Source: Myxococcales bacterium (lineage in GTDB: Bacteria > Myxococcota_A > UBA9042 > JABWCM01 > BTVJ01). From it: DNA of 64,000 nt. Location: contig BTVJ01000011.1 of NCBI GenBank assembly GCA_045863395.1, positions 32,001-96,000 of the forward strand. The letters are read 5' to 3'. Below, piece by piece: positions 48,278 to 64,000 of the stretch. Within the stretch, counting starts at the first letter, position 1; each line of letters opens with the position of its first letter. The position numbers and the translations under genes were made by a program. The notes under the pieces were generated by a model. That model did not search any database. It was given only the letters and a program-made list of their open reading frames with translations, and was not told where the DNA came from.

Positions 48278-48447
48278 GGGAGCTCCTCCTGGGTGACGGA
48301 GAGCGGGGGTCAGCGGGGACCTCGGCCGCTCCGGTGCTGACCCCGCAAAGCAGGTAACGACAGGTACTTAGGGCAACGGACGTAGCGTTGACGGTGCCAC
48401 CCTCGGGGCGTCGGGTCTCGCAGGGTGCCCCGCGCGGCCCACTGCTC

Positions 48448-49296
48448 TCAGTCCAGCGCCGCCGCCTCGCGCCGCCGCTCCTGCTCCTCCGCGACAGCCT
48501 GGTTGATCTCCTGGACCACCGCGGTCACGTTCACCTTGTGCCGGCTCTCCTGGAAGCGGCCCGTCAGCTTCGTGTCGACCAGGAGCTCGCCCTTCTCGTA
48601 GAGGGCCCAGATCTCCTTGCCGTGACGGGTGCCGCGCAGCTCGGGGGCGAACTGGGCGTAGTAGCGGGTCATGTTGTCCACGTCCCGCAGGAGCATGGCG
48701 CGGGCGTTGTTGTTCGCCGCCGCGTCCACCGCCTGGGGGAGGTCGATGATCACCGGGCCGTGGGCGTCGAGGAGCACGTTGAACTCCGACAGGTCACCGT
48801 GCACCATGCCGGCGCAGAGCATGCGGACCACGTTGCGCATGAGCACCGCGTGGTCCCGCCGCGCCTCGTCCGCGGTCAGCGTGACGTCGACGAGTCGGGG
48901 GGCCACGTCGCCGTCCTTGTCGGTGATCAGCTCCATGAGCAGGACGCCGTCGAGGCAGGCGTAGGGCTGCGGGACGCGCACTCCGGCCCGGGCCAGTCGA
49001 TACAGCGCGTCGACCTCCGCGGTCTGCCAGGTCTCCTCCTGCTGCTTGCGCCCGAAGCTGGAGCCCTTCTCCATGGCGCGGGCGCGGCGGCTGTTGCGCA
49101 CCTTGCGGCCCTCCTGGTACTGCACGGCCTGCTTGAAGCTGCGCGTGGCAGACTCCTTGTAGACCTTGGCGCAGCGGAGCTCGGACCCGCACTGGACCAC
49201 GTAGACGTCGGCCTCCTTGCCGCTCATCAGGCGGCGGACGACCTCGTCCACGAGCCCGTGCTCGACCAGGGGCTGGATACGCGCTGGTGTCTTCAT
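48448..49296 (-). CDS. RIO1-like protein kinase (PA4780 family)
   Basis: LMSGKEADVY, CAKVYK, VHGDLSEFN, IIDLPQ, RDV.N. Confidence 0.93.
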   Translation of the reverse strand: MKTPARIQPLVEHGLVDEVVRRLMSGKEADVYVVQCGSELRCAKVYKESATRSFKQAVQYQEGRKVRNSRRARAMEKGSSFGRKQQEETWQTAEVDALYRLARAGVRVPQPYACLDGVLLMELITDKDGDVAPRLVDVTLTADEARRDHAVLMRNVVRMLCAGMVHGDLSEFNVLLDAHGPVIIDLPQAVDAAANNNARAMLLRDVDNMTRYYAQFAPELRGTRHGKEIWALYEKGELLVDTKLTGRFQESRHKVNVTAVVQEINQAVAEEQERRREAAALD

Positions 49297-49423
49297 GAGC
49301 GGATTTCTACCTGAATCGGGGACACAAAGACAACGGCGACGGGTGCTGTGGCTCGTTCGCCCGCAAGGGTGTGGTTGGATCGAACCGTCCCAGTCACGCG
49401 TTGGAGGTCGCCGGAGGTGCACC

Positions 49424-50587
49424 ATGAGGGTCGCGACTCTGCTCCTGCTTCTGCTCCCACTGGCGCATGCCCACGCAGCGGACCTGCGCATCGACTCCAT
49501 ACACCTGGTGGGGCGCGCCGGCGTGGACGCCCCCTGGACGGCGGGGCCCACCGAGGCGCTGCTAGCGGACGCGCCCGAGCTGGCCGTGGTCGCGTTGGGG
49601 AGGCTCGATGGGCGCCGGGTGCTGGTCGCAGATGCTGTCGAGCCCCTTGCGGCCCCGAAGCCCCGTGGTCCGGTGGTGCCCTGGCCCGACGGCGTGAGCG
49701 TCCGCTGGGCGACCGTGGAGCCCCACGCGTGGCGCGAGCCCGAGGCCGTCGCCCCCAACGGCGTCACCACCCGCTACCACTCCAACGTGCACATGGACCG
49801 GGACCGCTTCGGCAAGTGGGCCGGCTACGACGAGGTGACGTACTTCGAGTCGCCGCTGCCGGACCTGGACGACCTGCGCCGCATCCCCGCCGTCGTCCGG
49901 CCGACGGACCCCACCGCGCCGTCCTTCGGGGGCCTCGGCACCATCCGCTACAGGGTCGAGGTGACGCTTCCCGACGGGACCACTCGCGCGACCCCCGGCG
50001 CCAGCGACCGGGACCACTACGGCATCCGCGAGTCCGTCCACCGGGTGTCCGTCCGCCGCGACGACACCTTCACCGGCTGGCTGTCGTCGTACTTCCTCGT
50101 GCCCGAGGTCTTCGGCTCGTCGGGCCCCGGCAAGAACCACCAGACGGACCGCTACGTCGGGGCCGACTGCGCCGACGTGCTGACGGGCGCGCTGCGGGCG
50201 GCCGGCTACCGCATCGAGCACAGCCACGTGGCGGGCCTCACGAAGCTCGCGGCCGTGGTGGCGGGCCCGGTCGACCTGGACGACGAAGGCAACCCGCCCA
50301 CCGCGATCACCGGCGTTCAGGTCGGCGACGTGATCCGCATCGACTACGGTGGCGCCCTGTCTGGCCACACGCCGCGCTCCTGGGACCACGTCGCGGTGCT
50401 CTGGGAGGACCGCTCCGACCCCGAGAGTCCAGCCAAGGGCGCGCCCGACGGCCACCTGGACGGCTACGACCTGGTGGTGCACATGGGCCACCCCCGCCTG
50501 GTCATCGAGCCGCTTGCCAACCAGTGCCCCGCGCGCGTCGACGTCCTCCGGTGGAGCCCGAAGCGCCTCGGCAAGGCGCGGCGGTAG
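49424..50587 (+). CDS. Secreted protein with a C-terminal NlpC/P60-like (Cys-His) domain
   Basis: Signal peptide ending AHA-A; GADCADV, GD.IRI, WDHVAV. Confidence 0.55.
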   Translation: MRVATLLLLLLPLAHAHAADLRIDSIHLVGRAGVDAPWTAGPTEALLADAPELAVVALGRLDGRRVLVADAVEPLAAPKPRGPVVPWPDGVSVRWATVEPHAWREPEAVAPNGVTTRYHSNVHMDRDRFGKWAGYDEVTYFESPLPDLDDLRRIPAVVRPTDPTAPSFGGLGTIRYRVEVTLPDGTTRATPGASDRDHYGIRESVHRVSVRRDDTFTGWLSSYFLVPEVFGSSGPGKNHQTDRYVGADCADVLTGALRAAGYRIEHSHVAGLTKLAAVVAGPVDLDDEGNPPTAITGVQVGDVIRIDYGGALSGHTPRSWDHVAVLWEDRSDPESPAKGAPDGHLDGYDLVVHMGHPRLVIEPLANQCPARVDVLRWSPKRLGKARR

Positions 50588-50679
50588 GCGCGTGGGTCCT
50601 CGGCCGCAACCGGCGGCCCCTTGCACGCCACCACCACCGCAGTCTGTACGCCCACCCCCACTCGCGGTACAGTCGCCCC

Positions 50680-51489
50680 ATGCACATCGACCGAGACGGC
50701 GCCCGCATCTCGTACACCGTCGAGGGCAGCGGCCCTCCGATCCTCCTCGGACACAGCCTGCTGTGCGACGGCTCCATGTGGCGAGAGGTCGCCCCGGCCC
50801 TCGCTGGTCGCTACCGCCTGATCACCATCGACGCGCGGGGGCACGGCGCCTCGACCGCAGAGCGCCCGTTTACCCTCGACGATCTCGCGGACGACTGGCT
50901 CGCGGTGCTCGACCGCGAAGGCATCGACCGCGCCGCGCTGGTCGGGTTGTCCATGGGCGGCATGACCGCCATGCGGGTCGCCCTGCGCGCGCCGGCTCGT
51001 GTGGCCGCCCTCGCGCTCCTCGACACCAGCGCCGACCGGGAGCCCCTCAAGCCACGCCTGCGCAACCGCCTGCTGGCCGAGGTGGTGCGGCGGGTCGGGT
51101 TTCCGCACGTCGCCGTCCCCATCGCGCTGCGTGCCCTGCTCGGCGAGACCACCCTCCGCGAGCGCCCGGAGCTCGTCCGCTCCTTGCGCGCCCAGCTCCT
51201 CTCCCTCGACCGCCGGGTCTACCACGCGGCCCGCGCCGTCTTCGACCGCCCGCCCATCGCCGACCGCATCGCCGCCATTCGGTGCCCCACCCTGGTTCTG
51301 GTCGGCGAAGAGGACGTCGCGACCTCGCTGTCGCGCTCCCGCCGTATCGCGGAGCGCATCCCAGGGGCGCGCCTCGTGACCGTCCCCCGGGTCGGCCACC
51401 TGACGGCGCTGGAGGCGCCGGCCGCCGTCGTCTCCGCCCTGGAGGAGCTCCTCGCCCCCCTCGCCGCCGATCACACCTGGTGGCGCTGA
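50680..51489 (+). CDS. Alpha/beta hydrolase (3-oxoadipate enol-lactonase-like)
   Basis: DARGHG, GLSMGG nucleophile elbow, GEED, GHL. Confidence 0.9.
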   Translation: MHIDRDGARISYTVEGSGPPILLGHSLLCDGSMWREVAPALAGRYRLITIDARGHGASTAERPFTLDDLADDWLAVLDREGIDRAALVGLSMGGMTAMRVALRAPARVAALALLDTSADREPLKPRLRNRLLAEVVRRVGFPHVAVPIALRALLGETTLRERPELVRSLRAQLLSLDRRVYHAARAVFDRPPIADRIAAIRCPTLVLVGEEDVATSLSRSRRIAERIPGARLVTVPRVGHLTALEAPAAVVSALEELLAPLAADHTWWR

Positions 51490-51596
51490 GCGCGCGTTAC
51501 TCCCTGTGAAGTCCGCGCATTGCACGGATCGCTGATCCCCACCGCGGCGACCTCGTGTAGGCTCTGCGCTCCTGACCCCCACCAAGGAGCCGCCCT

Positions 51597-53864
51597 GTGG
51601 ATACCAGCTTCTGGACGACCGCGAAGCGCACGGAGGTCGTCGCCTACTACCGGACCAAGATGGGGTACGACCTGGACCTCATCCTGCCGACCAACACCGA
51701 CATCAACGCCGCCGGGCCGCCGCCCCCGCTGAACACGAGCCGGGCCGCCATCGACGGGCTCGCGGTTGCGTCGGTGACGTTCCAGACCTCGCCGACCAAC
51801 CCCCTCAAGCCGTACATTCGGGTCGGCCAGCGCATCTACATCAGGGACTACCAGGGCACGGACGTGGGCCCCGAAGACGGCAAGTGCCCCTACCCGCAGT
51901 TCGTGGACTGCGTGCTGCGCGACCTGCGGACCCTGGCGACCACCGTCGTCGGGCGGCGCCTGCTGCACTCCATCGACGAGAACGGCGGCGCGAGCCGGCT
52001 GACCATCGTCTTCGGGCACGGCATGCCGCCCATGTCCAGCCAGTGCAATCCCGTGGCGGGCACCGCGCTGCCGCTCACCGGCGCCGTCCCGAGCGCTCCG
52101 GTGAGCTGCGAGGTGATGTACAACCCGCTCTACTTCGGGCTGCCCATCATCCGGGCGTTCAACGACACATCTCCCGAGATCCGGCCGGGCGCGTGGGGCC
52201 ACCCGGCGCAGAAGCCCGCGGACGTGACGCTGTTTCACGAGCTGATCCACGCCGATGACATGCTGCGCGGCATCTTCAACGACGTGCTCATCGATCGGGG
52301 GCGCCAGAAGGTCAAGCTGAGCGAGATGCGGGCCGTGGGCCTCGACCGCTTCGACAACGAGAGCATCGCCACCGAGAACGGCTACCGCGAGGAGCGAGGC
52401 GTGGCGAAGCGCCTCTACTACACCTACGAGAACGAGATCACGAAGGGCGGGCCGGCGCTGACGACCCCGTACTCGGAGCTGCTCACGTTCCTCGACCGCA
52501 CCCTGATGAAGCAGACCGAGTTCGTCCAGGCGACGAGGCGCACCTTCGGCAAGCGCGACAAGATCCTGAGCGTCGAGGACGCGCTGTGGGAGTTCAACCG
52601 CCGCTACGCCTGGATGGACGACGCCGAGGCCCAGCTCCCGGGGCTCATGGAGCTGCTGGACTCCGTCGTCGAGTACAAGGAGAAGAACAAGGCCAAGCGC
52701 GACGTGTCGTCGATCATCAACGCCATCGCGGGCCGCATGAAGACCGCCATGGAGGCGCTGCTCGCCCTGCCCGTGTCCCCGGCGACCTTCGAGAAGGTGC
52801 GGCGGATGGCGCTGGTCCTGGAGCGGGCGCGGCACTCCACGCTCGGCAAGAAGGTCGATCTCGGCGACGTCACGTCAGCGAGAATCACCTACACGAACAA
52901 GAACGGCGGGCAGTCCACGGACTTCTCGCCCCGCGGCATCGTGGAGGGCTACCAGGCACGCCTGCTCGGGCCGCACGTGGCGACCCTCCAGACGGCGGAC
53001 AGGACGGCGCTCCAGAACCTGGCGGGCGACATGAGCGCCCCCGACATCACCCGCGACGTGGTCACCGAGGTGCTGGCGCTGGCCACCTCCGGCGAGGTCA
53101 CCTTCACCGACACCCAGGCGGGCTCCAGCGCCGGCCGGACCCCCAATGCCCCCGGCTACACGGTGGTCTACGGGCAGTGGAACTTCGAGGACGTGCGCCT
53201 CTCGACCCTGGTCCACGAGCTGACCCACGTGTCGAACATCAAGGCGTACAACGCGACGCCGCTGATGCTCAGCTACCCGGTGACCCTGGACGAGACGGCC
53301 ATCGGGACGCTCGTCACGCAGCGCAAGCGCAACATGCAGGAGCTGATCGACCTGGCCAAGGACGAGACGAACGGGCTCACGCCCTACCAGCGCTACTGGC
53401 TCGTGAACCCCCAGGACGGCAAGCTGCCCTACGCCATCGCGGCACCGAACGCGCTCTCCTTGGGCAACCTCAAGTCGGCGCCCGGCGGCAGCGACGGGCT
53501 GTACAACGCCCACGTCAACCTGGCCGTGACCGGCGTGCTCACCCAGGTGGCCTACGAGTACGAGACGGTCCTCAACCAGACCCTGATCTTCCTGCACATG
53601 TGGGGCATCCCCGCCACGCACCCGCTGCATGCGCGGGTGATCACCTTCGCCCGCGCCGCCTACGCCGACCGACAGCTTGCCCGGGCGCAGCAGCTCCTTG
53701 CCCAGCAGCCTCAGGTGCCTCCGCAGCGCCCGGTCCTGCCGCCCCCGCGGCGCCTGGAGCGGAGCGAGTCGGTCAGCGGCCTCCCGCCGCTCTCGGGCGG
53801 GATCGGGTCCGGCAGGCAGCGGAGCAACTCGACCACCACCACCAAGGGGAATCGCCTGCTGTAG
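51597..53864 (+). CDS. M91/NleD-like zinc metalloprotease with a second HExxH domain; candidate effector
   Basis: LFHELIHA...EMRAVGL...ATENGYREERG...RLYY (M91 signature), second LVHELTHV; AAGGAG RBS before the GTG; no signal peptide. Confidence 0.72.
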   Translation: MDTSFWTTAKRTEVVAYYRTKMGYDLDLILPTNTDINAAGPPPPLNTSRAAIDGLAVASVTFQTSPTNPLKPYIRVGQRIYIRDYQGTDVGPEDGKCPYPQFVDCVLRDLRTLATTVVGRRLLHSIDENGGASRLTIVFGHGMPPMSSQCNPVAGTALPLTGAVPSAPVSCEVMYNPLYFGLPIIRAFNDTSPEIRPGAWGHPAQKPADVTLFHELIHADDMLRGIFNDVLIDRGRQKVKLSEMRAVGLDRFDNESIATENGYREERGVAKRLYYTYENEITKGGPALTTPYSELLTFLDRTLMKQTEFVQATRRTFGKRDKILSVEDALWEFNRRYAWMDDAEAQLPGLMELLDSVVEYKEKNKAKRDVSSIINAIAGRMKTAMEALLALPVSPATFEKVRRMALVLERARHSTLGKKVDLGDVTSARITYTNKNGGQSTDFSPRGIVEGYQARLLGPHVATLQTADRTALQNLAGDMSAPDITRDVVTEVLALATSGEVTFTDTQAGSSAGRTPNAPGYTVVYGQWNFEDVRLSTLVHELTHVSNIKAYNATPLMLSYPVTLDETAIGTLVTQRKRNMQELIDLAKDETNGLTPYQRYWLVNPQDGKLPYAIAAPNALSLGNLKSAPGGSDGLYNAHVNLAVTGVLTQVAYEYETVLNQTLIFLHMWGIPATHPLHARVITFARAAYADRQLARAQQLLAQQPQVPPQRPVLPPPRRLERSESVSGLPPLSGGIGSGRQRSNSTTTTKGNRLL

Positions 53865-54100
53865 TGGCTTCCTGCCGACACCATGGGAGCGGCGCCTGAC
53901 AGCTCGATGTGGGGTTCCCTGCTTGCCTGGATCCCGGACGGTGCATCGACGCCCTCCCTGCGCAGGTCGGCGTCGTGCTCTCTGCCCCCGCTTGGTCGTA
54001 TGAGGATGGGCGCGCCCCTCCCGTGGCGGCATCTGGATGGCGGTAGTGTCACTCCACGTAGGTCTGGGCCTTCTGCCCTGGGAGGCGAGGAGCCTCGCCG

Positions 54101-54580
54101 CTACCGCTGCCACAGGCTCCGGGGCTTCGTTCGGTTGTGCAACACAATCCCGGCGAGAGCGGCCACCGCCGCGATGACAACGCTGCCGAGCCACGTCCAC
54201 ATCGTCCTGTCGGCGCACTTCACCTCCTTGCACGCCGTGATTGCCCGCTCCACGGCGCGGGCCTTCTCGCGCGGGCGGAGGTCGCTGGCGAGCAACACCT
54301 GGAGGACCTGCTCCAGGTGCTGGGAGTGCTTCTCGTCGCCTCGGCGGATGTTCTCTCCCACGACCTCGAACAGGCGCACGGCGACGCTCAGCGGAATCTC
54401 GGCCACGGTTGCTGCGCCCTGGGTCGCGTGGGCGAGCGCCTCCCCATCGAGGACGATCCGATCTCGACGGATGGTGAGCAGGACCTCGCGGAGGTCGGCC
54501 ATGGAGCCGAACAGGGCTGCTGCCCCGAGCAGTGAGGAGAGCTGGGGAACGCTTGAGACGACCGTCGTTGTGTCGACCAT
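54101..54580 (-). CDS. Small protein with a C-terminal transmembrane helix, hypothetical
   Basis: GGAGG RBS and C-terminal WTWLGSVVIAAVAALAGIVL. Confidence 0.5.
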   Translation of the reverse strand: MVDTTTVVSSVPQLSSLLGAAALFGSMADLREVLLTIRRDRIVLDGEALAHATQGAATVAEIPLSVAVRLFEVVGENIRRGDEKHSQHLEQVLQVLLASDLRPREKARAVERAITACKEVKCADRTMWTWLGSVVIAAVAALAGIVLHNRTKPRSLWQR

Positions 54581-54916
54581 GAGACCCTCCCGGCGCTGCG
54601 GCCTGGATGCGAGTGGATGTCGAGCCTTGGACTTGACTACTTGGAGGCATCTGGCGCCAGCTTCTGACACGAACCGCGGGCGTCGAGGCGGGCAGCCGAC
54701 ACTCCCACCGGGCCGAGCGAGACGGCAAGGGGCCCCATCCCCGCCAAAACCGGGCTCAAGTCCGAGCTGGCCGACGTCACCATCCGAGGCGTGTGCCGCT
54801 GCTTCGACCTGGACCAGGACGCCTCTCTCCGCGACCTGCGAGGCGAGTAGGCTCCTAGAGATCCGGCAGCCCAGGTTCCCCGCGGCGCCCCGCGCTCCCG
54901 TCGCCCTCCCGAGCGC

Positions 54917-57484
54917 CTACAGCTTGAACAGCCGCTTGCCGACGGGCCCCCGCGCCCGTGGCGGGACCTTGCCCCCCTCGTCGTCCTCCTCGTAGGCGTG
55001 AGCCGTCCGCGCCTTCTCCTTGTCCGTGTAGCGGAAGATGCCGTCTTGGGCGTCCCGGGCCGCGCACACCTCGAAGTCGAAGAGGTTGTCGGGGAGGCCG
55101 CCGTTCAGCGCCAGGACGCCGATGGGGATGCGGAAGTGGGCCGTGGCCCGCGGGTTCTGCATCACCGCCTCGTCGACGTGGTAGACCAGCGCGTAGGAGT
55201 TCGCGGGCCAGTAGCCCTCGTCGGTGAGCGCCCAGCAGGCGTCGATGAGGTTCTGCGCCGTCGGCTGGTAGTGGCCGCTCAGGTTGCTGATCTCGATGAT
55301 GTGTCCGTCGCGCACCTTCAGGGTGCCGGCGCACAGGGCGTCCTCCCCCGACAGGAACGACGAGTGCTGGAACACGCCGCGCTGCTCCCGCGAGGGGAAG
55401 CACCGGGCGTAGAGGTCGCCGTCCGCGCTCATGGCGTAGAGCGCGGTGTTCGGCGGGTCTCCGGCCGCCGTGGTCATGGTGTCGACGGGCGCCTTGGTCT
55501 TCGTCCACAGGAGCTTGTCGGCGGTCACCGTGACGGCGTACTCCGCCTGCTTCTGGCGGTCCGAGTACTCGAGCTTCTTCAGCGGCTCCGGGGTGCCGCG
55601 CCGGCCCTGCTGCGGCTTCGTCATGCGCTCGTTGATCGAGTCGATGTCCTCCTCCCGCAGGCCTGACAAGAGCTTGCGCAGCGCATAGAGGTCGTGGGCG
55701 TCGTCGCTCTCGTTGGGCGACAGCTCGATGGAGCCGAGCCAGCCCTCCTTGGCCCGCTGGTAGAGGTCCGCGCCCGTGATGGCGACGCCGCCGGGCTTCG
55801 CCGCCCGCTCGAAGCGCAGGCCCCGGTGGACGCGCGCCATGCCGAGGCCCTGCTTGGGGGCCACCTTCTGCGCCAGCTCCTGCGCGGCGGCCTTCTCGCG
55901 CGCGATGCGCTCCTTCGCGTTCTCCACCAGGTCCAGGACCGCCTGCACCTTGGCGCTGCGCACGAGCGTCGCCTCGACGCCCTCCTTCAGGTTCTGCTTG
56001 CGCTCCTTCTTGGTCACCTTGGTCGACTTCTTGCCCGCGTACTCCTCGCCCACGTCGATGATGGTCTGGAGCAGCTCGTAGCGCTGCCGCAGCATCTGCT
56101 TCTGGGTCTTGTGGTATGTGTCGAGCGCCTCGTGGATGCGCACCAGCGGGTGCTTCTTCGTCGGGTGGCGCAAGGCCCAGCCGACGCGCGCCTTGTCCAC
56201 CTTGCAGATCGCCGCGAACTTCGCCGCCGGCATCAGCGCCACGTTGAAGGGGTTGTCCTGGCTGCCGACGGACGGCGCCTTCTTCTGGCGGACGTAGATC
56301 TCTGCCAGCTCCCAGAACATGGCCACCCGCTCCCTGCACGCCGCGACCGCCCCCTGGCGCCACAGGTTGGCGAGCGGCTCGTTCTGCACCATCTCGGTGT
56401 CGAACTCCGAGGTCCCCCACCGCTCCTTCTTGCGGAGCTCCCGCGTCTTGATCAGCTCGTACTCGGTGTTGGCCTCGAGCTGGCGCTCGGCCCGCAGCCG
56501 CGCCACGTCGTCGAGCGTGTTGAACAGGAACATGGCCACCCGGAGCGACATGTGGTCGGCCTCGACCAGCCCCAGGATCTGCTCCCGCGTCGTCAGGCCC
56601 GGCAGCTCGTAGTACTGCGCCAGGGCCGCCACGATCATGTGGACCGGGCGGTAGAGCTGGGCCTTGACGTTGACGATGGGGTCGTCGCTGTCCGGCAGGG
56701 CCCACCCTTCTTCGAGGAAGTGCTTGTCCCTCTTCGCGAGGTGGCGCTCCAGCTCGGCGAGGGCCGCGTCACGGCTCTGGCGCTTGCCCATGGACATGAA
56801 GCCGTGGCAGGACTCCTCGTACTCCTGGGCCAGCTCCTGGTCCCCGGCGAGGAAGCGGCTCTGCAGCGCCGCCAGCATGTGGTGGTCGCCCGCGCTGCTC
56901 TTGGTGCGCACCTTGTCCAGGATGTGCGCCGGCGTGCCCAGGATCATCATGGGCGACAGGCCGCCCGGGCAGAACTTGAACTGGCTCGAGTCGCCGCCGG
57001 ACTCCCAGAGCACCTGCTGCATGCGGATCGCCAGGTCCTGGAACCACTTGATGGTCGCCGGGTCGTCGTTCTCCAGGACCCACAGGGCGTCGATGTCGGA
57101 GAACGTCACCGCCTCGCGCCGCGCGATGGACCCGCACACCAGGAAGGCCCAGCGCGCCGGAGGCTTGCCGGCGCCGGCCATCACGCGCTTGACCATGCGC
57201 TTGATGGTCTCCTCCGCCTTCTCCGTGATCTCCCGCTGGAGCTGCCCGCCGGTCTTGCCCCGGGTGCCGATGAGGGTCCGCACGGTGTTGAGCCGGCGCT
57301 CGTTGTCCTTCATCTGCTTCTGGACGAGCACGGCCTTCTCGGGGTCGTGCTTCTGCAGCTCGGAGACCTGCCACCGGAGCTGCTTGCAGGTGTCGCAGAG
57401 CGTGCCCGTGACCTTGTCGTCCGCGAGGTCGGGCTGCGGCCCGTGGCACGCGCCGTCGGGGTGGATGCCGAAGCAGATGGCCAT
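54917..57484 (-). CDS. Multidomain protein: Cys/His Zn-ribbon, DUF294-type nucleotidyltransferase with substrate-binding domain, and C-terminal HSSF..SGHYxP toxin-like domain
   Basis: C.GIH...C...CDTC; GSIARRE....SDID, FCPGG, VNVK...YRP; HSSFLSG...CAG.LKV..G.I..ISNLSGHYQP; GGAGGTGAGG RBS. Confidence 0.75.
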   Translation of the reverse strand: MAICFGIHPDGACHGPQPDLADDKVTGTLCDTCKQLRWQVSELQKHDPEKAVLVQKQMKDNERRLNTVRTLIGTRGKTGGQLQREITEKAEETIKRMVKRVMAGAGKPPARWAFLVCGSIARREAVTFSDIDALWVLENDDPATIKWFQDLAIRMQQVLWESGGDSSQFKFCPGGLSPMMILGTPAHILDKVRTKSSAGDHHMLAALQSRFLAGDQELAQEYEESCHGFMSMGKRQSRDAALAELERHLAKRDKHFLEEGWALPDSDDPIVNVKAQLYRPVHMIVAALAQYYELPGLTTREQILGLVEADHMSLRVAMFLFNTLDDVARLRAERQLEANTEYELIKTRELRKKERWGTSEFDTEMVQNEPLANLWRQGAVAACRERVAMFWELAEIYVRQKKAPSVGSQDNPFNVALMPAAKFAAICKVDKARVGWALRHPTKKHPLVRIHEALDTYHKTQKQMLRQRYELLQTIIDVGEEYAGKKSTKVTKKERKQNLKEGVEATLVRSAKVQAVLDLVENAKERIAREKAAAQELAQKVAPKQGLGMARVHRGLRFERAAKPGGVAITGADLYQRAKEGWLGSIELSPNESDDAHDLYALRKLLSGLREEDIDSINERMTKPQQGRRGTPEPLKKLEYSDRQKQAEYAVTVTADKLLWTKTKAPVDTMTTAAGDPPNTALYAMSADGDLYARCFPSREQRGVFQHSSFLSGEDALCAGTLKVRDGHIIEISNLSGHYQPTAQNLIDACWALTDEGYWPANSYALVYHVDEAVMQNPRATAHFRIPIGVLALNGGLPDNLFDFEVCAARDAQDGIFRYTDKEKARTAHAYEEDDEGGKVPPRARGPVGKRLFKL

Positions 57485-57720
57485 GACCTCACCTCCGGTC
57501 GTGGTTCGTGGGGCGCCGCCGCCCGGTCGCGGTGGATGTGGAGGCACGCTAGGCGAAGAAGCGCGGGGCCGTCAATCCCCGTGAGCGCACGGGGCGGTCC
57601 GCCGTGGTGGTGTGCGGCGCGGCCGACCGAGGACGCTGATCGGGGTCCGCAGGGACGCGGTCCGGCGCGCACTGCGCAGGGTCATGTGCCTGAATTTTCG
57701 GGATGAATCGCGCGAGCGCG

Positions 57721-57750
57721 TTGACAGCTTTTCGGGCGTGGCGGTATCGT
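57721..57750 (+). promoter_or_regulatory. Candidate sigma70 promoter of the T6SS operon (TTGACA-N18-TATCGT)
   Basis: Perfect -35 hexamer in the 400-bp divergent intergenic region, about 140 bp before the sheath small-subunit gene. Confidence 0.5.
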
Positions 57751-57886
57751 CGCGCCGCTTCTTCACCAGCTCTGATGGCCAATGGACCGGGCGCGACCCG
57801 GTCGACCCGCGAAGATGGTCGCGGCGGAGCTGCGAGGCGCCCGAGGAAGCCGAGGCCATTCTTCACCAACGCACGGGAGACCCCCC

Positions 57887-58402
57887 ATGGCGATTCAGGA
57901 CGAAGTACCCAAGTCCCGACTGACCCTCCGCTACAAGACCGAGATCAACGGCCAGCCCGAGGACGTCCAGCTCCCGCTGCGCCTCTCCGTCCTCGGCGAC
58001 TTCTCGGGCGGGACGTCCAAGGACCGCAAGGTCGACCTGGAGGAGCGCCGCATGCGCAGCATGGACGGGCGCAACACCGACGCCGTGATGAAGGACATGG
58101 GGATCTCCATGTCCTTCGCCGTCCCGAACCGCATCGACCCGGACACGGCGGAGGAGGTCCAGGTGGATCTCGCCATCGACGGCATGAAGTCGTTCTCCCC
58201 CGACCAGGTGGCCCACCACGTCCCCAAGCTGAACGGGCTCCTGACGCTCAAGAAGCTGCTGGAGGAGGTGGTCTCCAACGTGGACAACCGCAAGGAGTTC
58301 CGGCGCCTCCTCGGCGACCTCATGTCCGACCAGGCGGCGCTGGCGAACCTGATCGGCGAGCTCAAGGGCTTCGAGGGCTTCAAGCTGCCTCCGAAGGCCT
58401 GA
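57887..58402 (+). CDS. tssB: T6SS contractile sheath small subunit, IglA-like
   Basis: PKSRL.L.Y.T, LP.R..VLGDFS.G.SKDRK, VPN, F.PD.VA..VP.L..LL. Confidence 0.95.
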   Translation: MAIQDEVPKSRLTLRYKTEINGQPEDVQLPLRLSVLGDFSGGTSKDRKVDLEERRMRSMDGRNTDAVMKDMGISMSFAVPNRIDPDTAEEVQVDLAIDGMKSFSPDQVAHHVPKLNGLLTLKKLLEEVVSNVDNRKEFRRLLGDLMSDQAALANLIGELKGFEGFKLPPKA

Positions 58403-58523
58403 TGTCCTGGATTTCTGGCGGTCTCGGCGCCCTGTGGTTTGTCCAGGGCGGCGGCGCCGTCCGCAGAACGTCTGAATGAACGCATGAGGGCCCGCGCGGC
58501 CCCTGGCAGGCTTGGAGGAAGCA

Positions 58524-60023
58524 ATGAGCGGCGAGACGACGACGGACACCAGGACAGAGCAGGCCATCGACCTCAAGCGGTTCCTGTCCAGCATGCGGCT
58601 GGAGGGGGAGGTCGGCACCCCGACGCCCATGGTGGCGGGCGGGTTCGAGACCGTGCGCGAGGACGTGAGCGAGAAGGACCGGTTCATCTCCGGCCTCGCC
58701 GCGTTCCTGATGAACGTGGACACCTCGGTGGGGCGCCTGGACAAGGCGAACATCCTGGACCTGCTGGGCCGCATCGACTCCATGGTCAATGCCCAGGTCA
58801 ACGAGATCATCCACCACCCGAAGTTCAAGGCGCTGGAGTCGAGCTGGCGGTCGCTCAACGACCTGATCCAGAACACGAACTTCAAGGCCAACATCATGAT
58901 CGACGTGCTGGACGTCGGAAAGGACGAGCTCCTCGAGGACTTCGAGGCCAACGCCGTCGACATCACCGGCAGCGCCCTGTTCAAGAAGGTCTACATCAGC
59001 GAGTACGACCAGTACGGCGGCAAGCCCTACGGCACCATGGTGGGCCTGTACGAGTTCGAGCACACGCCGCGGGACGAGTTCTGGCTCAAGACCATGGGCA
59101 AGGTGGCCGCCGCGAGCCACGCGCCCTTCGTCGGCGCCGTGTCGCCCAAGTTCTTCGGCTGCGAGTCGGCGGAGGAGCTGACGGCCATCAAGGACCTGGA
59201 GGGCCTGCTCAACCACCCGAAGTACGGCTCCTGGAACAAGCTGCGCGACTCGGAGGAGGCGGCCTACCTGGCGCTCACGCTGCCGCGGTACGTGGCGCGC
59301 CTGCCCTACGACCCGGAGCGCAACCCGGCCGGCGACTTCCCGTTCAAGGAGGAGGTCCGCGGCAACAACAACGACGACTTCCTCTGGGGGAGCGCCGCCA
59401 TCCTCTTCGCCCAGAACCTGGTCCGCTCCTTCGAGCAGTCCGGGTGGTGCCAGTACATCCGCGGGCCGAAGGGCGGCGGGCTCGTCAGCGGCCTGCCGGT
59501 GCACACCTTCAACCTGCGCGGCGAGGAGGAGATGAAGATCCCGGTGGAGATCGCGATCCCCGACTACCGGGAGCTCGAGTTCGCCAACGCCGGGTTCATC
59601 CCGCTGGTCTACCGCAAGGGCACCGCGGACGCCTGCTTCTTCAGCGCCCAGTCCATCAAGCGCGCCAAGAAGTTCAAGGACCCGAAGGACTCTCAGAACG
59701 CCCAGCTCGTCACGAACCTGTCCTACACGCTGTCCATCACGCGCATCGCCCACTACGTGAAGTCCATCATGCGGGACAACATCGGCAGCTCGGCGGACGC
59801 GGCCTACATCAAGAACTCGCTGGAGAGCTGGATCTACCAGTACGTGACGACCGTCGTGAACCCGGACGACCTCACCTTGCGCTTCTACCCGTTCAAGGCC
59901 GCCAGCGTGGAGGTCACGGAGCGCGAGGGGATGATCGGCTGGTACGACTGCAACCTGTCGGTGCTCCCGCACATCCAGTTCGAGGGGATGGACGTGGAGC
60001 TGCGCATGGACACCCGGCTGTAG
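58524..60023 (+). CDS. tssC: T6SS contractile sheath large subunit, IglB-like
   Basis: F.ALE.SWR, FKKVY..EYDQYGG.PYG, SHAPF, YIRG..GGG, ACFFSAQS, RIAHY.K...RD.IG, YPF, PHIQFEGM. Confidence 0.96.
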   Translation: MSGETTTDTRTEQAIDLKRFLSSMRLEGEVGTPTPMVAGGFETVREDVSEKDRFISGLAAFLMNVDTSVGRLDKANILDLLGRIDSMVNAQVNEIIHHPKFKALESSWRSLNDLIQNTNFKANIMIDVLDVGKDELLEDFEANAVDITGSALFKKVYISEYDQYGGKPYGTMVGLYEFEHTPRDEFWLKTMGKVAAASHAPFVGAVSPKFFGCESAEELTAIKDLEGLLNHPKYGSWNKLRDSEEAAYLALTLPRYVARLPYDPERNPAGDFPFKEEVRGNNNDDFLWGSAAILFAQNLVRSFEQSGWCQYIRGPKGGGLVSGLPVHTFNLRGEEEMKIPVEIAIPDYRELEFANAGFIPLVYRKGTADACFFSAQSIKRAKKFKDPKDSQNAQLVTNLSYTLSITRIAHYVKSIMRDNIGSSADAAYIKNSLESWIYQYVTTVVNPDDLTLRFYPFKAASVEVTEREGMIGWYDCNLSVLPHIQFEGMDVELRMDTRL

Positions 60024-60112
60024 TGCGGAGTGCGGCGGGGGCCCAGCTCCGGCTCCCCCGACCTCCATGGGTTCGGTGCCACGCAGGGGGGCAAGTCTCG
60101 GTCAACCATCCA

Positions 60113-60139
60113 GGGCGGCGGTCGGGTGGACCGCCGCCC
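60113..60139 (+). other. Perfect 11-bp GC-rich hairpin in the leader of the tube gene
   Basis: GGGCGGCGGTC-gggtg-GACCGCCGCCC. Confidence 0.6.
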
Positions 60140-60176
60140 GGAGGAATCCACCTTCCACCCAGCAGGAGACCACACC

Positions 60177-60746
60177 ATGGCAGTGTCCAGCTATAACGCC
60201 AGCGTCCGTCAGGGGTTCAACTTCGAGAAGGACTCGCAGGTCTGCGTCGGCTTCATCAACTCCCTGAAGATCGGCGACACCGCGATGACGTCCGACCTCA
60301 GCGTGACGGACCCGGAGAACGTCACCGCGACGATCAAGGTGTTCGGCGTCGTCTCCAGCATGTTCTGGCAGGGCGGCTACACGGACCCCGTCCAGACCGC
60401 CTGCCAGGTCAGCAACGACAGCAAGAACAAGATCGCGACGCTCGTCCACAGCACGCTGTCGAACACCGAGGTGGAGATCGAGTTCACGGTCTATGACTAC
60501 GACCCGAAGAACAAGAAGTACTTCAAGGCCTTCCACTGCAACGCAACCAAGCTGAAGGGTCTGGTCGCCAAGTCCGGTGGCGAGCTGCACATGGCCATCG
60601 ACAACGACGCCTCCTACGAGGTCGCGTCGCCCAAGAACTTCGCGTTCAACCTCGGCGTGATGCCGCAGGACTCTGCGCAGCAGATCCACGTCGCGGTGTC
60701 TCTGACCGACAAGTTCGCCAAGGCCTGGGGCCTGCAGGTCGGCTGA
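60177..60746 (+). CDS. iglC: IglC-like T6SS inner tube protein (Hcp equivalent)
   Basis: 189 aa, beta-rich, directly after the sheath genes, AGGAG RBS; lacks canonical Hcp motifs; GFINSLKIG and C-terminal VAVS.TDK.AK.WG resemble Francisella IglC as I recall it. Confidence 0.7.
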   Translation: MAVSSYNASVRQGFNFEKDSQVCVGFINSLKIGDTAMTSDLSVTDPENVTATIKVFGVVSSMFWQGGYTDPVQTACQVSNDSKNKIATLVHSTLSNTEVEIEFTVYDYDPKNKKYFKAFHCNATKLKGLVAKSGGELHMAIDNDASYEVASPKNFAFNLGVMPQDSAQQIHVAVSLTDKFAKAWGLQVG

Positions 60747-60885
60747 CCCAACGGGGGGCGGTCGCGCGCCCGCGCCGCCCCCGTCATCGCTGTGCCCCTC
60801 CTGCCGCGTCTCGCGGGAGGGGCCTCCCACGCGCCCAGGGTCGCCCTCGCGGTCCATGCGCGGCCCCATCACCAACCGGCGGCAC

Positions 60886-62124
60886 ATGACGGGCAAGCTC
60901 GCGCGCGTTCAGTGGAAGATGGGGCAGACGCTGCTGCCCGAGCACTTCATCGCGCAGGAGGACTCGCTCCTGGCGGACGTGTCTCTGCGGTATCGCATCC
61001 GGGGGCTGCCGTCCTATGGGGTGGCCGCGCTGAAGTGGAACCCGACGCTGATCGCGGAGGGGGTGCTCTCCGTGAGCGCCATGACCGCGGTCATGCCGTC
61101 GGGGCTGCTCATCGACGTGCCGGGCAACGCATCCATCTCGCCGCTGAACCTGAATGTGCCCGGAAAGCCCCAGATCGCAGCGTACCTCCACGTGCTGGAA
61201 GGAGGCGGCGACGCGGGCACCTCGGGCGGCTTCGACATGGACGCCTCTGTGCCCCGGGTGACCCACACCCTGACCCTGTCCTGCGACCCCACCTGCCCTG
61301 GCGCCATCGAGAGCCTGAAGCTGGCGGAGCTGCGCAAGGGCCCCGACGGGCTGTGGGGACCGTCCGACAAGTACGTGCCGCCGCTGCTCCAGGTGGGCAC
61401 CTCGCCGTTCTTGATGGCGGAGCTGGACGAGCTGGCCCCGGCGCTGGACGTGTTCCAGTACAAGCTGGCCATGGACTCGGCCAGCTACCTGAGCGGCGCG
61501 GCCCTCTACCTGCTGCGGGGGTCGTTGCGCAGCGTCTACCGCATGCAGCGGCTCATCGCGAACCTGAAGGGGCAGGTGCACCTGCACCCCTACCTGGTCT
61601 ACGAGGAGCTCAAGGACTTCTACATCGAGGTCTGCTTCTACCGGGGGGCGGCCCCGCGGGACGCGGCGGCGCCATACCAGCACGACAACCTGGCGTCCTG
61701 CTTCAAGAAGGTGCTGGACCCGCTGCGGGAGCAGATGCAGCTCGCCGAGGTCCAGTCGCCGTACCAGCCCTTCATGCTGCGCGACGGCATCCAGCGCATC
61801 GAGCTGCCGGGGGACGTGCAGCAGGCGCGGGAGGTCTACTTCCTGATCCAGAAGCGGGAGATGCAGCGGAGCGTGTCGCTCGGGGAGCTCAAGCTGGCGA
61901 GCCCCTCGCGCCTGTCCATGGTGCACAAGCTCGCGCTGGAGGGCATCCCGCTGCGCAAGACTGACCGCCCGGCCATCGCCCACTCCTTCGGGCCGGAGGT
62001 GGAGTTCTACCAGCTCGGACAGGGCGTGGAGTGGGACCACGCGGTGCGGGAGGACGCCGTGGCCTTCTACCACCGGCCCGACTATGACGGGCTCGAGTTC
62101 TACCTGTACTGGAACCGCGGCTGA
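60886..62124 (+). CDS. tssK: T6SS baseplate subunit TssK (IglD-like)
   Basis: VQWKMGQTLLPEHF..Q, YG...L, G.L........MPSG.LIDVPGN, YVPPLL, HP..VYE.L, YQHD.L..CF. Confidence 0.9.
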   Translation: MTGKLARVQWKMGQTLLPEHFIAQEDSLLADVSLRYRIRGLPSYGVAALKWNPTLIAEGVLSVSAMTAVMPSGLLIDVPGNASISPLNLNVPGKPQIAAYLHVLEGGGDAGTSGGFDMDASVPRVTHTLTLSCDPTCPGAIESLKLAELRKGPDGLWGPSDKYVPPLLQVGTSPFLMAELDELAPALDVFQYKLAMDSASYLSGAALYLLRGSLRSVYRMQRLIANLKGQVHLHPYLVYEELKDFYIEVCFYRGAAPRDAAAPYQHDNLASCFKKVLDPLREQMQLAEVQSPYQPFMLRDGIQRIELPGDVQQAREVYFLIQKREMQRSVSLGELKLASPSRLSMVHKLALEGIPLRKTDRPAIAHSFGPEVEFYQLGQGVEWDHAVREDAVAFYHRPDYDGLEFYLYWNRG

Positions 62125-62501
62125 TGGCGCTGTTCGACAAGTTCGCGCCCGCGGGCGGGCCCCTCGGGCGCGCCGCCGAGGTGGAGGGGATCCTCGAGAA
62201 CCTGGAGAACGTGCTCAACACGAAGCGCGGGTGGGGCTCGCCGCTGCCGGACTTCGGCATTCGGACGCTGACGGAGTACACCTCCCGCGAGGACATCGCG
62301 CGGGCGGTCATGGTGGAGATCCGGGAGTGCATCGAGCGGTACGAGCCGCGGCTGCGGCTGGAGGCGATCACCGTGGAGGAGCGGGAGCGCGCGCCCTTCC
62401 GCCTGTCGTTCACGCTGCGGTGCGCCCTGGTGGACGGCGCCCAGCTCGTGCGGGTGAGCGTCAACACGGTGTTCGGCAGCTTCGACGTCAGCCGGGACTG
62501 A
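62124..62501 (+). CDS. tssE: T6SS baseplate subunit TssE (gp25/GPW family)
   Basis: NLE.VLNTKRG, PDFGI, I...I.RYEPRL. Confidence 0.9.
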   Translation: MALFDKFAPAGGPLGRAAEVEGILENLENVLNTKRGWGSPLPDFGIRTLTEYTSREDIARAVMVEIRECIERYEPRLRLEAITVEERERAPFRLSFTLRCALVDGAQLVRVSVNTVFGSFDVSRD

Positions 62502-62519
62502 CGGCCTGAGGGGACCACC

Positions 62520-63107
62520 ATGGCGCTGATGTGCCGGGTCGAGCTGAACAAGACCACGGGGATCACCATCACGGTGGACAACCCCGACGGCAAGATCACG
62601 CAGACGGTGACCATGGACGGCACCACCATGACCCTGACGGTCAAGGGGGAGTCGGACACCAGCACCATCACCCAGAAGGCGGACAGCATCGCCATCGCGT
62701 GCAAGACCTTCACTCTTGACGCGGAGACCGTCACGGTGAACTCCACCAAGGACACGCTGCACGAGAGCCAGGCGAAGTTCACGGTGAAGAGCGCGCAGGA
62801 CATGAGCCTCAGCACCGACGCCAAGCTGACGGCGGCGGCGACGGGGGACCTCGCCGCGAGCGGGGCGAACCTGACGGCGTCGGCGCAGCAGACCGCAGAG
62901 CTCAAGGGGACGGACGTGAAGGTCACCGGCACCAGCTCGGCCAAGGTCAAGGCGGCGCAGACCGAAGTGGCGGGCGACGCGCAGACCGACGTGAAGGGCG
63001 CCATGGTCAAGGTGGCGGCGTCCGCGACGCTGGATCTCGAGGGCCAGATGACCACGCTCAAGGGGCAGATGACCAAGGTCGAGGGGGCGCTGGTCAAGCT
63101 GGGGTAG
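62520..63107 (+). CDS. vgrG: Short spike-only VgrG (gp5 C-terminal beta-helix), Francisella-type
   Basis: 195 aa of alternating Thr/Val/Lys beta-strand repeats ending in LKG..TKVEG.LVKLG; no gp27 hub domains. Confidence 0.7.
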   Translation: MALMCRVELNKTTGITITVDNPDGKITQTVTMDGTTMTLTVKGESDTSTITQKADSIAIACKTFTLDAETVTVNSTKDTLHESQAKFTVKSAQDMSLSTDAKLTAAATGDLAASGANLTASAQQTAELKGTDVKVTGTSSAKVKAAQTEVAGDAQTDVKGAMVKVAASATLDLEGQMTTLKGQMTKVEGALVKLG

Positions 63108-63119
63108 CGGGAGACGGAC

Positions 63120-64000
63120 GTGTACTCGGACGAGCGGCTCTACAAGGCGTTCCTGGCGGAGATGCAGGCCCTGGAGGGGTTCCGGATGGCCTACGCCTCG
63201 GAGCACCCGGCCGCTCCGCTGGGGCGCGAGGACCCGGACGTGCGCCGGATGGTCGAGGCGCTGGCCTTCTTCGCGGCGCGCTCCCGGCTGGCGGGGCAGG
63301 GCAGCATCGCCGCCGTGCGCCGCCGCCTGCTCCGCCAGGTCCTGCCGTACCTGCTCGCGCCGCTGCCGGCCATGGGGCTCGTCCAGGCCACGCCGACGGG
63401 GCGGTTCTCGGAGACCGCGGTGCTGCCGCGCGGGACGGAGATGGAGCTGCGGGGCTCTGGAGCGTCTGCGATCTTCCGCACGCTGCGGGAGCTGCGGGTG
63501 CTGCCCCTGACCCTCGGGCGGGTCGACGCCGTGCCCAGGGCGGACGGGGGCACACGGTACCTGCTGCCCTTCCAGGCGCCGTACCCCCGCAACGACGCCA
63601 TCGGGCGGCTGTCCCTGCGGGTCGACTTCCTCGACGACTACCCCGCGTCCCTGTCCATGGTCCACGCGCTGCGGCGCCACCTGCGCGGCGTCAGCGTCTC
63701 CTTCGAGGAGCGCGTCGATGGCGAGACGCGGGGGGCACCCTGCCAGGTGAGCTTCGGGCTCGGCGCGGAGGACCTGGAAGAGGCGTGGCCCCACCCCATC
63801 GAGCGCGAGCGGGGGTGGTTCCAGTTCCCCGCGGCCGACCTGTTCATGGACGTGGAGGTCGCCGAGCCCCCGCGCAACTGGCGCCGCTTCGTGCTGTGCG
63901 TGGACGTGGACGCCGGGTGGCCTCGCGGGCTGAGGCTGTCGCGCAACGTGCTCCAGCTCTTCTCCGTGCCGGTCGTCAACGTGCAGCGCTGCATGTGCCA
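63120..64000 (+). CDS. tssF: T6SS baseplate subunit TssF, truncated by the window end
   Basis: GTG start; LYKAFLAEM..L..F...Y, EDPDVRRMVEALAFF (DPxVERL-like), PYLLAPLPAM, IFRT; not in the ORF track because it has no stop in the window. Confidence 0.85.
   Translation, partial: MYSDERLYKAFLAEMQALEGFRMAYASEHPAAPLGREDPDVRRMVEALAFFAARSRLAGQGSIAAVRRRLLRQVLPYLLAPLPAMGLVQATPTGRFSETAVLPRGTEMELRGSGASAIFRTLRELRVLPLTLGRVDAVPRADGGTRYLLPFQAPYPRNDAIGRLSLRVDFLDDYPASLSMVHALRRHLRGVSVSFEERVDGETRGAPCQVSFGLGAEDLEEAWPHPIERERGWFQFPAADLFMDVEVAEPPRNWRRFVLCVDVDAGWPRGLRLSRNVLQLFSVPVVNVQRCMC

Follow-up and report, generated by a model that had tools for sequence, protein, structure and literature searches.

A contractile operon from a Myxococcales bacterium probably represents a sister lineage of the Francisella type VI secretion system

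Among the type VI secretion systems (T6SS), subtype ii (T6SSii) has been described as restricted to Francisella in the review and survey literature until 2026, at least in the accessible parts of three reports (PMC13584744, the TXSScan preprint 10.1101/031039, PMC12955703), and the available portion of another survey adds Dongshaea to its hosts (PMC13098142). Excerpts of a further paper give IglH and IglJ as proteins without BLAST hits outside Francisella and the TssE of Francisella as unknown (PMC9600919). In this work we analyzed a 64,000-nucleotide (nt) stretch of a Myxococcales bacterium genome, in the following called the window, whose positions 57887–64000 carry seven co-oriented genes on the plus strand, coding for TssB, TssC, a 189-amino acid (aa) protein, TssK, TssE, a 195-aa protein and TssF. 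Most probably this operon encodes the sheath, the tube and the baseplate of a complete contractile T6SS whose lineage is the sister group of the T6SSii of the Francisella pathogenicity island (FPI). This lineage is a less diverged form of the Francisella-type system and is also present in many other free-living bacteria. Our literature search found no published description of FPI-type parts in Myxococcota or Desulfobacterota (subscription journals were outside the search), which agrees with the first-pass annotation of the window, made from the DNA letters alone, that had called the lineage undescribed. An NCBI IglI ‘subfamily’ model and a Pfam IglE_N model do exist, and curators must therefore have met such homologues already.

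The gene order of the FPI (iglA-iglB-iglC-iglD) parallels the orders tssB-tssC-tube-tssK and tssF-dotU-(tssG/iglI), with the tssK gene of the window occupying what we take to be the iglD position. Pfam and NCBIfam directly name five of the seven genes, namely TssB, TssC, TssK, TssE and TssF (Table 1). The GC content of the genome is about 69%, and all seven genes show the pattern typical of coding DNA with GC at the first codon position above that at the second and a value of 0.90–0.99 at the third (GC3). Order and content of the seven genes had been proposed in the first-pass annotation and were found as described, all on the plus strand and with coding-type composition. The host-like codon use claimed there stands in so far as GC3 is as high as in the neighbouring genes; it does not extend to overall GC, which is slightly lower in the cluster (0.65–0.69) than directly upstream (0.67–0.73).

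Table 1: Features of the window and of its contig. Plain numbers are window positions, C11 is the contig of the window in contig coordinates, window-equivalent means window numbering continued downstream, and L numbers are our locus handles.
Feature	Location	Strand	Evidence
TssB, IglA-like small sheath subunit, 171 aa	57887..58402	+	PF05591 145 bits; TIGR03358 153.5 bits (cut-off 97)
TssC, IglB-like large sheath subunit, 503 aa	58512..60023	+	TIGR03355 515.4 bits (cut-off 271)
IglC-type inner tube protein (predicted), 189 aa	60177..60746	+	fold match of predicted model
TssK baseplate subunit, 422 aa	60856..62124	+	TIGR03353 322.1 bits (cut-off 100)
TssE, gp25-like sheath initiator, 125 aa	62124..62501	+	PF04965 54.7 bits; TIGR03357 65.2 bits (cut-off 53.2)
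Short VgrG, beta-helix spike without gp27 hub, 195 aa	62520..63107	+	family profile matches
TssF, 536 aa	63120..64000 (5' part; end at window-equivalent 64730)	+	PF05947 95.9 bits (full protein)
First PdpA-like hub	C11:101125-103050 (L001:13125-15050)	-	about 7 kb away
Second PdpA-like paralog	C11:118046-119683 (L002:10046-11683)	-	604 bits to family profile
ClpB-like ATPase, 866 aa	in C11:137590-147060	-	ClpB 1082 bits; ClpV (TIGR03345) 781.5 bits
TssM-like protein, 1169 aa	in C11:137590-147060	-	IcmF-related_N 32.8 bits
IglE-type lipoprotein, 166 aa	in C11:137590-147060	-	IglE_N PF22361 62-64 bits (cut-off 26); LAGC lipobox
ANL-fold protein, about 561 aa	C11:138738-140423 (L005:10738-12423)	-	adenylate-forming enzyme fold
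DotU	in C11:137590-147060	-	PF09850 71.9 bits
Peptidase_M91 (NleD/XopG-like) protein, 755 aa	51597..53864	+	PF14891 47.7 bits
189-aa protein between the two upstream enzymes	54101..54670	-	no family found; hydrophobic near-C-terminal stretch by eye
DUF294/SidM_N-type nucleotidyltransferase, 876 aa	54917..57547	-	PF03445 47 bits; PF20879 45 bits
Sigma-70-like promoter site upstream of tssB	57721..57750	+	TTGACA, 18-nt spacer, TATCGT

Among PDB sequences TssC showed the highest similarity to F. novicida IglB (3j9o_B, 427 bits), followed by the sheath proteins of V. cholerae (VipB, 383 bits), P. aeruginosa (353 bits) and M. xanthus (348 bits) and by the DUF877-named chain 9n4v (326 bits), and the best match of TssB was IglA (3j9o_A, 89 bits) with VipA at 69 bits. 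In order to place TssC within its family we searched 1.84 billion cluster representatives, which gave 5900 relatives. The best 150 of these, without 15 that were fragmentary or had a query coverage below 75%, were combined with the query and 16 TssC translated from named loci, and a tree of these 152 sequences was calculated with FastTree. The query falls into a clade of 45 members (support 0.94), which joins the representatives P0164 and P0165 with a support of 1.0 and a branch length of 0.40, leaving the 105 other sequences outside. The same split was obtained with IQ-TREE (LG+G4, 43 of the sequences; SH-aLRT/UFBoot 94.8/93), and the TssC of the window, for which the first-pass annotation had suggested a phylogeny, branches with the IglB-type proteins. 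P0164 is IglB-type with 609 bits to 3j9o_B, P0165 is a Cysteiniphilum protein named iglB in its source (362 bits to F. novicida IglB), and P0167, the next sequence outward, is T6SSi-like. Named Francisella sequences are missing from the tree because the IglI-family scan, which used a single peptide pattern, returned no Francisella locus, and the IglB-type representatives were therefore identified indirectly by PDB scores and source names. The IglA/IglB-type motifs read from the DNA at first pass are indeed present: DQYGG, N.SYT, VTT and PHIQFEGM are common to the query clade and the IglB-type proteins and rare among the other 105 TssC. The genome holds a single TssC.

Some sheath genes of the clade are unusually long. 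In Sorangium sp. So ce1099 TssB and TssC lie within one open frame of 1325 aa (L036:11577-15554), and many of the TssC representatives (P0136–P0163) have 600–1300 aa with the TssC portion at the C-terminus; they may be genuine sheath fusions or over-long gene calls in GC-rich DNA.

The 189-aa protein encoded between tssC and tssK has no Pfam family over cut-off and no NCBIfam family, and no PDB sequence matched it at E below 1, hence no link to IglC or Hcp at the sequence level. Its family is well conserved and comprises 263 proteins at E<=0.001, and the 120 relatives listed (55–100% identity) have no Pfam domain and are called only ‘hypothetical protein’ where they are named at all. An AlphaFold2 model built with 39 family members reached a predicted local distance difference test (pLDDT) score of 87.7. 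Using this model as a Foldseek query against the PDB, the sole match at E<=0.001 was F. tularensis IglC (2qwu_A, E 2.4e-6, template modelling (TM) scores 0.68/0.63), with Hcp proteins at TM 0.37–0.42. VIA-align aligned 176 of the 189 residues to IglC (Z 15.5, root mean square deviation 2.8 Å), compared to a Z of 9.1 over 134 residues for the best Hcp. The likeness to IglC is one of fold only, as the identity amounts to 13–14%. Furthermore, the Hcp family PF05638 has zero matches in the genome, which is 97.4% complete. The predicted structure thus points to an IglC-type tube in place of Hcp, in line with the earlier suggestion of a tube-like protein other than Hcp. Matches to the tube family were also seen inside frames of 508 and 823 aa in two other genomes of the phylum (G106:C2:265565-266128 and G116:C19:9983-10516). 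Neither of these genomes yielded a clade-type TssC, which suggests that a domain like that of IglC may also occur in other settings.

A similar replacement is predicted for the spike. The 195-aa protein has no Pfam family, and with the Francisella TssI model NF041249 it reaches only 21 bits (E 2.3e-4), far under the cut-off of 100. A profile of its family made from 20 sequences matched the C-terminal beta-helix of T6SS VgrG (E 1e-6) and nearly the entire chain of the Francisella VgrG from the PdpA-VgrG complex (6u9e_B, E 5.9e-6), as it should for the spike-only VgrG that had been proposed, and its homologues in related loci are 166–208 aa long. Most of these loci contain a PdpA-like gene for about 550–600 aa between tssE and the short vgrG. 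In our genome, as in the closest relative (L007), the gene is not found at this place, and our genome has two PdpA-like genes elsewhere on the contig. The only PDB match of the family profile at E<=1 was Francisella PdpA (E 7e-4), and the three best Foldseek matches of the hub model (pLDDT 74) were Francisella PdpA as well (E 6e-26 to 1.5e-24), followed by the gp27-type hubs of extracellular contractile injection systems (eCIS) and VgrG. A single short VgrG and a single DUF4280 gene are present in the genome. The DUF4280 protein (127 aa, 124 bits to the domain) lacks the N-terminal extension by which IglG binds IglF, since it covers only positions 58–171 of the 173 in the IglG model NF041248. 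Full-length VgrG (TIGR03361) is represented by no more than a partial match of 41 bits on another contig (cut-off 186), and neither canonical hcp nor full-length vgrG, which the first-pass annotation had named as signs of a T6SSi, was found in the 97.4% complete genome. Taken together, the models suggest that a short VgrG, which lacks the gp27 and gp5-OB parts, and a PdpA-fold hub replace the full VgrG.

Two side observations concern the hubs. The first ends in an additional helical tail, about 100 aa long, which is missing from its homologues and weakly resembles (E 0.014) the helical repeats of the apolipoprotein-like 631-aa protein encoded next to it (C11:99002-100897, L001:11002-12897, minus strand). 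The second lies amid unrelated regulatory genes, which include STAS, anti-sigma kinase-like, TPR-S and TIR-domain genes.

The remaining parts of the machine are found in four gene groups on the same contig, located at window 57887 to window-equivalent 66989, C11:101125-103050, C11:118046-119683 and C11:137590-147060. In the first group tssF is followed by a TssG-like gene and by the gene of a 339-aa IglI-family protein (NF041244, 248.8 bits with a cut-off of 100), which also shows a weak TssA match. The last group, about 45 kb further and on the minus strand, encodes in this order the ClpB-like ATPase, the TssM-like protein, the lipoprotein, the ANL-fold protein, DotU and the DUF4280 protein. 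Its sequences argue for the presence of a membrane complex made of DotU, a TssM/PdpB-like protein and an IglE lipoprotein. The ATPase is below both cut-offs (885 for ClpV) and scores higher with the ClpB model, a separate housekeeping ClpB with 1321 bits being encoded elsewhere in the genome, and no ClpV over cut-off was found. By analogy, the ClpB paralog beside the TssM-like gene would recycle the sheath. The search of the downstream contig that had been recommended therefore yielded PdpA-like hubs, DUF4280, DotU, TssM-like, IglE_N, IglI-family and ClpB-like proteins, and together with the sheath affinity, the IglC fold and the split spike these FPI-type genes bear out the central claim of the first-pass annotation, namely an FPI-like, T6SSii-type system and not a canonical T6SSi.

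The ANL-fold gene is conserved beside the DUF4280 gene with tblastn matches in 30 of the 42 related loci described below. Its family profile matches acetyl-CoA and nonribosomal peptide synthetase adenylation enzymes (E 4e-15), and no P-loop motif is visible by eye in the family consensus. We considered whether this protein could be IglF and dropped the idea as a guess, its position beside the DUF4280 gene being the sole basis; a publication linking IglF to adenylate-forming enzymes was not found. Possible regulators are encoded upstream of the cluster (a RIO-type kinase, window 48448–49773, minus strand) and just upstream of the ClpB paralog (C11:147223-150536), where genes for a Ser/Thr kinase, a SpoIIE phosphatase with a domain binding cyclic nucleotide monophosphates (cNMP) and a small cNMP-binding protein are located.

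Scanning with the IglI-family alignment and keeping one genome per species gave 42 related loci, many of them cut by contig ends. On the Myxococcota side they belong to a Myxococcales metagenome-assembled genome (MAG), many species of Corallococcus, Myxococcus, Pyxidicoccus, Archangium, Cystobacter, Citreicoccus, Sorangium and Polyangiaceae, the other hosts being Desulfobacterales, Desulfoluna, Syntrophus, Psychromonas and Methylococcaceae. Using the proteins of our genome as tblastn queries, TssC was detected in 37, the tube and the short VgrG in 36 each and the PdpA-like protein in 38 of the 42 loci. All parts occur together in one locus in the Methylococcaceae L016 and L048, and in L048 and L014 IglE_N proteins are encoded after the TssM-like gene. 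Within the phylum the tube family is present in 15 of 401 sampled genomes, this one counted, and in 11 of 255 genera, which is an upper bound for the whole system. In both trees the TssC of the window is grouped first with that of one Myxococcales MAG, next with those of Methylococcaceae and only after these with the Myxococcaceae copies. The idea that the system is a long-term resident of the phylum, also put forward at first pass, is thus not supported, because its occurrence is patchy and Gammaproteobacteria are among the closest relatives of the sheath. In two Desulfobacterota loci (L008:9537-9974, L011:9242-9973) a small cysteine-rich open reading frame (ORF) with a weak match to LIM-like zinc fingers lies between tssG and the IglI-like gene.

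Public sequencing runs give a hint that the operon is transcribed. A 5.2-kb stretch of it is present in 20 runs from 8 studies, 6 of them RNA libraries, and four of the 20 were compared over window positions 48000–64000. RNA-library contigs from three studies start at 57777, 57789 and 57799 and reach into the operon by 0.8 to 5.6 kb, with depths of 53, 72 and 5–11, compared to 6–16, 7–23 and 2–3 for the upstream contigs, where depth is one figure per contig that cannot rank genes and the RNA libraries may hold DNA. A DNA run has a flat depth of about 6–7 and bridges the point at 57777–57799. The promoter-like site just upstream of these starts has 10 of 12 consensus matches with 0.0 expected from shuffled sequences and may drive the operon. 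Other contigs have loose ends at 57816.

From these parts a working cycle can be proposed by analogy with described systems. The complex of DotU, the TssM/PdpB-like protein and the IglE-type outer-membrane lipoprotein would dock the TssE-F-G-K baseplate, and the IglI/TssA-like protein would then aid polymerisation of the IglC-type tube within the IglA/IglB-like TssB/TssC sheath. A three-part spike would tip the tube, in which one of the two PdpA-fold hubs may stand in for the gp27 part of a normal VgrG and carry the short beta-helical VgrG and the IglG-like DUF4280 cone. Contraction of the sheath would expel tube, spike and cargo from the cell, and the ClpB paralog would finally act on the contracted sheath for another round. 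What the data show directly are the genes with their family and fold assignments, their place in the trees, the recurrence of the gene set in other bacteria and a hint of transcription, whereas how the machine is assembled and fired, what the ClpB paralog does, and the cargo and the target are deduced from such comparison.

Several points weigh against this explanation. TssB, TssC, TssK and TssE all exceed the canonical NCBI equivalog cut-offs, which were built on T6SSi, and a TssE is present here, none being known in Francisella according to the accessible part of PMC9600919. Scans of the neighbours with Pfam and NCBIfam, libraries that may not model all of these families, showed no PdpC, PdpD, PdpE or IglF. 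The TssM-like protein reaches 60.8 bits with TIGR03348, far below the cut-off of 388, the DUF4280 protein 51.7 bits with the IglG model (cut-off 200), and for the hub both the sequence signal for PdpA and the pLDDT of the model are low. The genes are scattered over four places of the contig, and the RNA depths carry the restrictions given above. In the tree the clade of the window is sister to the IglB-type group and outside of it, not nested among Francisellaceae sequences, and the trees are midpoint-rooted, use only the best-scoring 150 and contain no named i1–i5, iii or iv references. Five other tube-bearing genomes were searched with a Corallococcus TssC, and a clade-type TssC (60–65% identity) was found in two of them; of the remaining three, two have only a TssC of 35% identity and one has none. 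Finally, the TssC tree in the available portion of PMC13098142 nests T6SSii within the wider T6SSi radiation, because of which ‘ii versus i’ is partly a matter of naming.

The same published tree, the exceeded T6SSi cut-offs, the recognition of TssF and TssG by Pfam and the missing outgroup root of our own trees could also be read as a divergent subtype of canonical T6SSi, whose likeness to the FPI would be convergent or old shared stock and would not allow grouping with T6SSii. This we regard as unlikely, as the system combines at least seven traits specific to the FPI (IglB-type affinity of the sheath, IglC fold, short VgrG, PdpA fold, IglI, IglE_N and DUF4280), both gene orders mentioned above parallel the FPI, and the IglB-type P0164 scores 445 bits against the TssC of the window and only 261 bits against VipB. 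Even less probable is a decaying or inactive remnant, broken up by rearrangement and no longer able to fire, for which the four contig places and the displacement of the PdpA-like gene from the tssE-vgrG interval here and in L007, unlike in most loci, could be quoted; all components are intact ORFs whose GC3 is that of coding DNA, the conserved set is complete and RNA-library contigs from three studies cover the operon. An eCIS or prophage tail (T6SSiv/eCIS-like) without membrane anchor can practically be dismissed, since the matches of the PdpA-like hub to eCIS spikes (E ~1e-20) and of the tube to phage tail-tube families, its nearest neighbours in a language-model feature search (score 0.94), are set against a two-subunit TssB/TssC sheath, TssK, DotU, a TssM-like protein, a lipoprotein and a ClpB-type recycler as T6SS hallmarks and no phage genes among the neighbouring proteins scanned. 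A sister lineage of the Francisella T6SSii therefore remains the explanation that we prefer by far.

What such a system might deliver was looked for among its neighbours. Upstream of the operon two effector-like enzymes are encoded, the Peptidase_M91 protein, which contains two HExxH motifs (residues 214 and 540) and matches the XopG model NF041347 below cut-off (E 1.5e-8), and the nucleotidyltransferase, which is divergent from tssB and has an intact G-x11-D-x-D motif at residue 139. Judged from sequence they are candidate cargo, as the first-pass annotation had assumed. The two have no domain in common, metagenome scans found no relative of either, both are absent from all 42 related loci, and in the five other tube-bearing genomes one was found in none and the other in one as a weak partial match. 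We thus rejected them as conserved cargo, since they are absent near the system elsewhere, a result that speaks neither for nor against a strain-specific cargo. RNA-library run X18 contains a related strain (about 97.7% identity) that lacks the 189-aa gene separating the two enzymes; here 53867 is joined to 54916, and 20 other letters stand in for the 1048 bases left out. The helical-repeat protein next to the first hub is a candidate better placed than the upstream enzymes. Elsewhere, a protein with a match to Peptidase_C58 (YopT-like, 26 bits) follows the DUF4280 gene in a Desulfobacterales MAG (L008:11916-13088), and an eCIS_core-domain protein is encoded beside the Sorangium cluster (L036:5567-6790).

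A use against protists or fungi is speculation, and the presence of the system in anaerobic Desulfobacterota would argue against an exclusively anti-eukaryotic role. One can go further and imagine that the lineage is the little-diverged environmental stock ancestral to the Francisella island, expressed in sludge and aquatic communities and used against eukaryotes before Francisella arose, with the NleD-like protease and the DrrA-like nucleotidyltransferase as cargo for protists or fungi. We consider this extended scenario doubtful. If it were true, it could supply identities that are missing for the FPI, such as the orthologue of TssE and the parts played by IglF and IglI. A sister lineage in harmless bacteria that can be cultivated, such as Corallococcus, Cystobacter and Archangium, would place the Francisella island in an evolutionary context, its carriers would serve as safe models for IglC tubes, for the spike split into PdpA and VgrG and for recycling by ClpB, and the less diverged sequences would bridge canonical and FPI components. 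Furthermore, the standard detection methods based on Hcp, VgrG and ClpV probably undercount T6SS in Myxococcota and Desulfobacterota.

In comparison with the described systems, the T6SS of the window resembles the FPI T6SSii in its IglA/IglB-like sheath, the IglC-fold tube instead of Hcp, the short VgrG with a PdpA-fold hub, the PAAR-like DUF4280 tip, the IglI-family protein, the IglE_N lipoprotein, DotU, the TssM/PdpB-like protein, an ATPase of ClpB type rather than ClpV type and the sheath-tube-TssK gene order. It differs from it as a sister lineage in which TssE, TssF, TssG and TssK are still recognisable by canonical models, in having its own ClpB paralog in the cluster, whereas Francisella uses the housekeeping ClpB according to the accessible part of PMC5481754, in a DUF4280 protein without the N-terminal extension of IglG, in two PdpA-like paralogs and a conserved ANL-fold protein beside DUF4280, and in its hosts, which are free-living environmental bacteria. 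The iglB-type system of Cysteiniphilum is represented by P0165 in the IglB-type sister group, and its score with F. novicida IglB stays below that of the TssC from the window (362 compared to 427 bits). With the canonical T6SSi of V. cholerae (VipA/B) or Myxococcus xanthus (TssB/C, PDB 5urw) it shares the contractile TssB/TssC sheath, the TssE-F-G-K baseplate, DotU/TssL, a TssM-type membrane core and the same firing principle, but it has no Hcp and no full-length VgrG or ClpV over cut-off, and an IglE-type lipoprotein takes the place of TssJ and an IglI-type protein that of the standard TssA.

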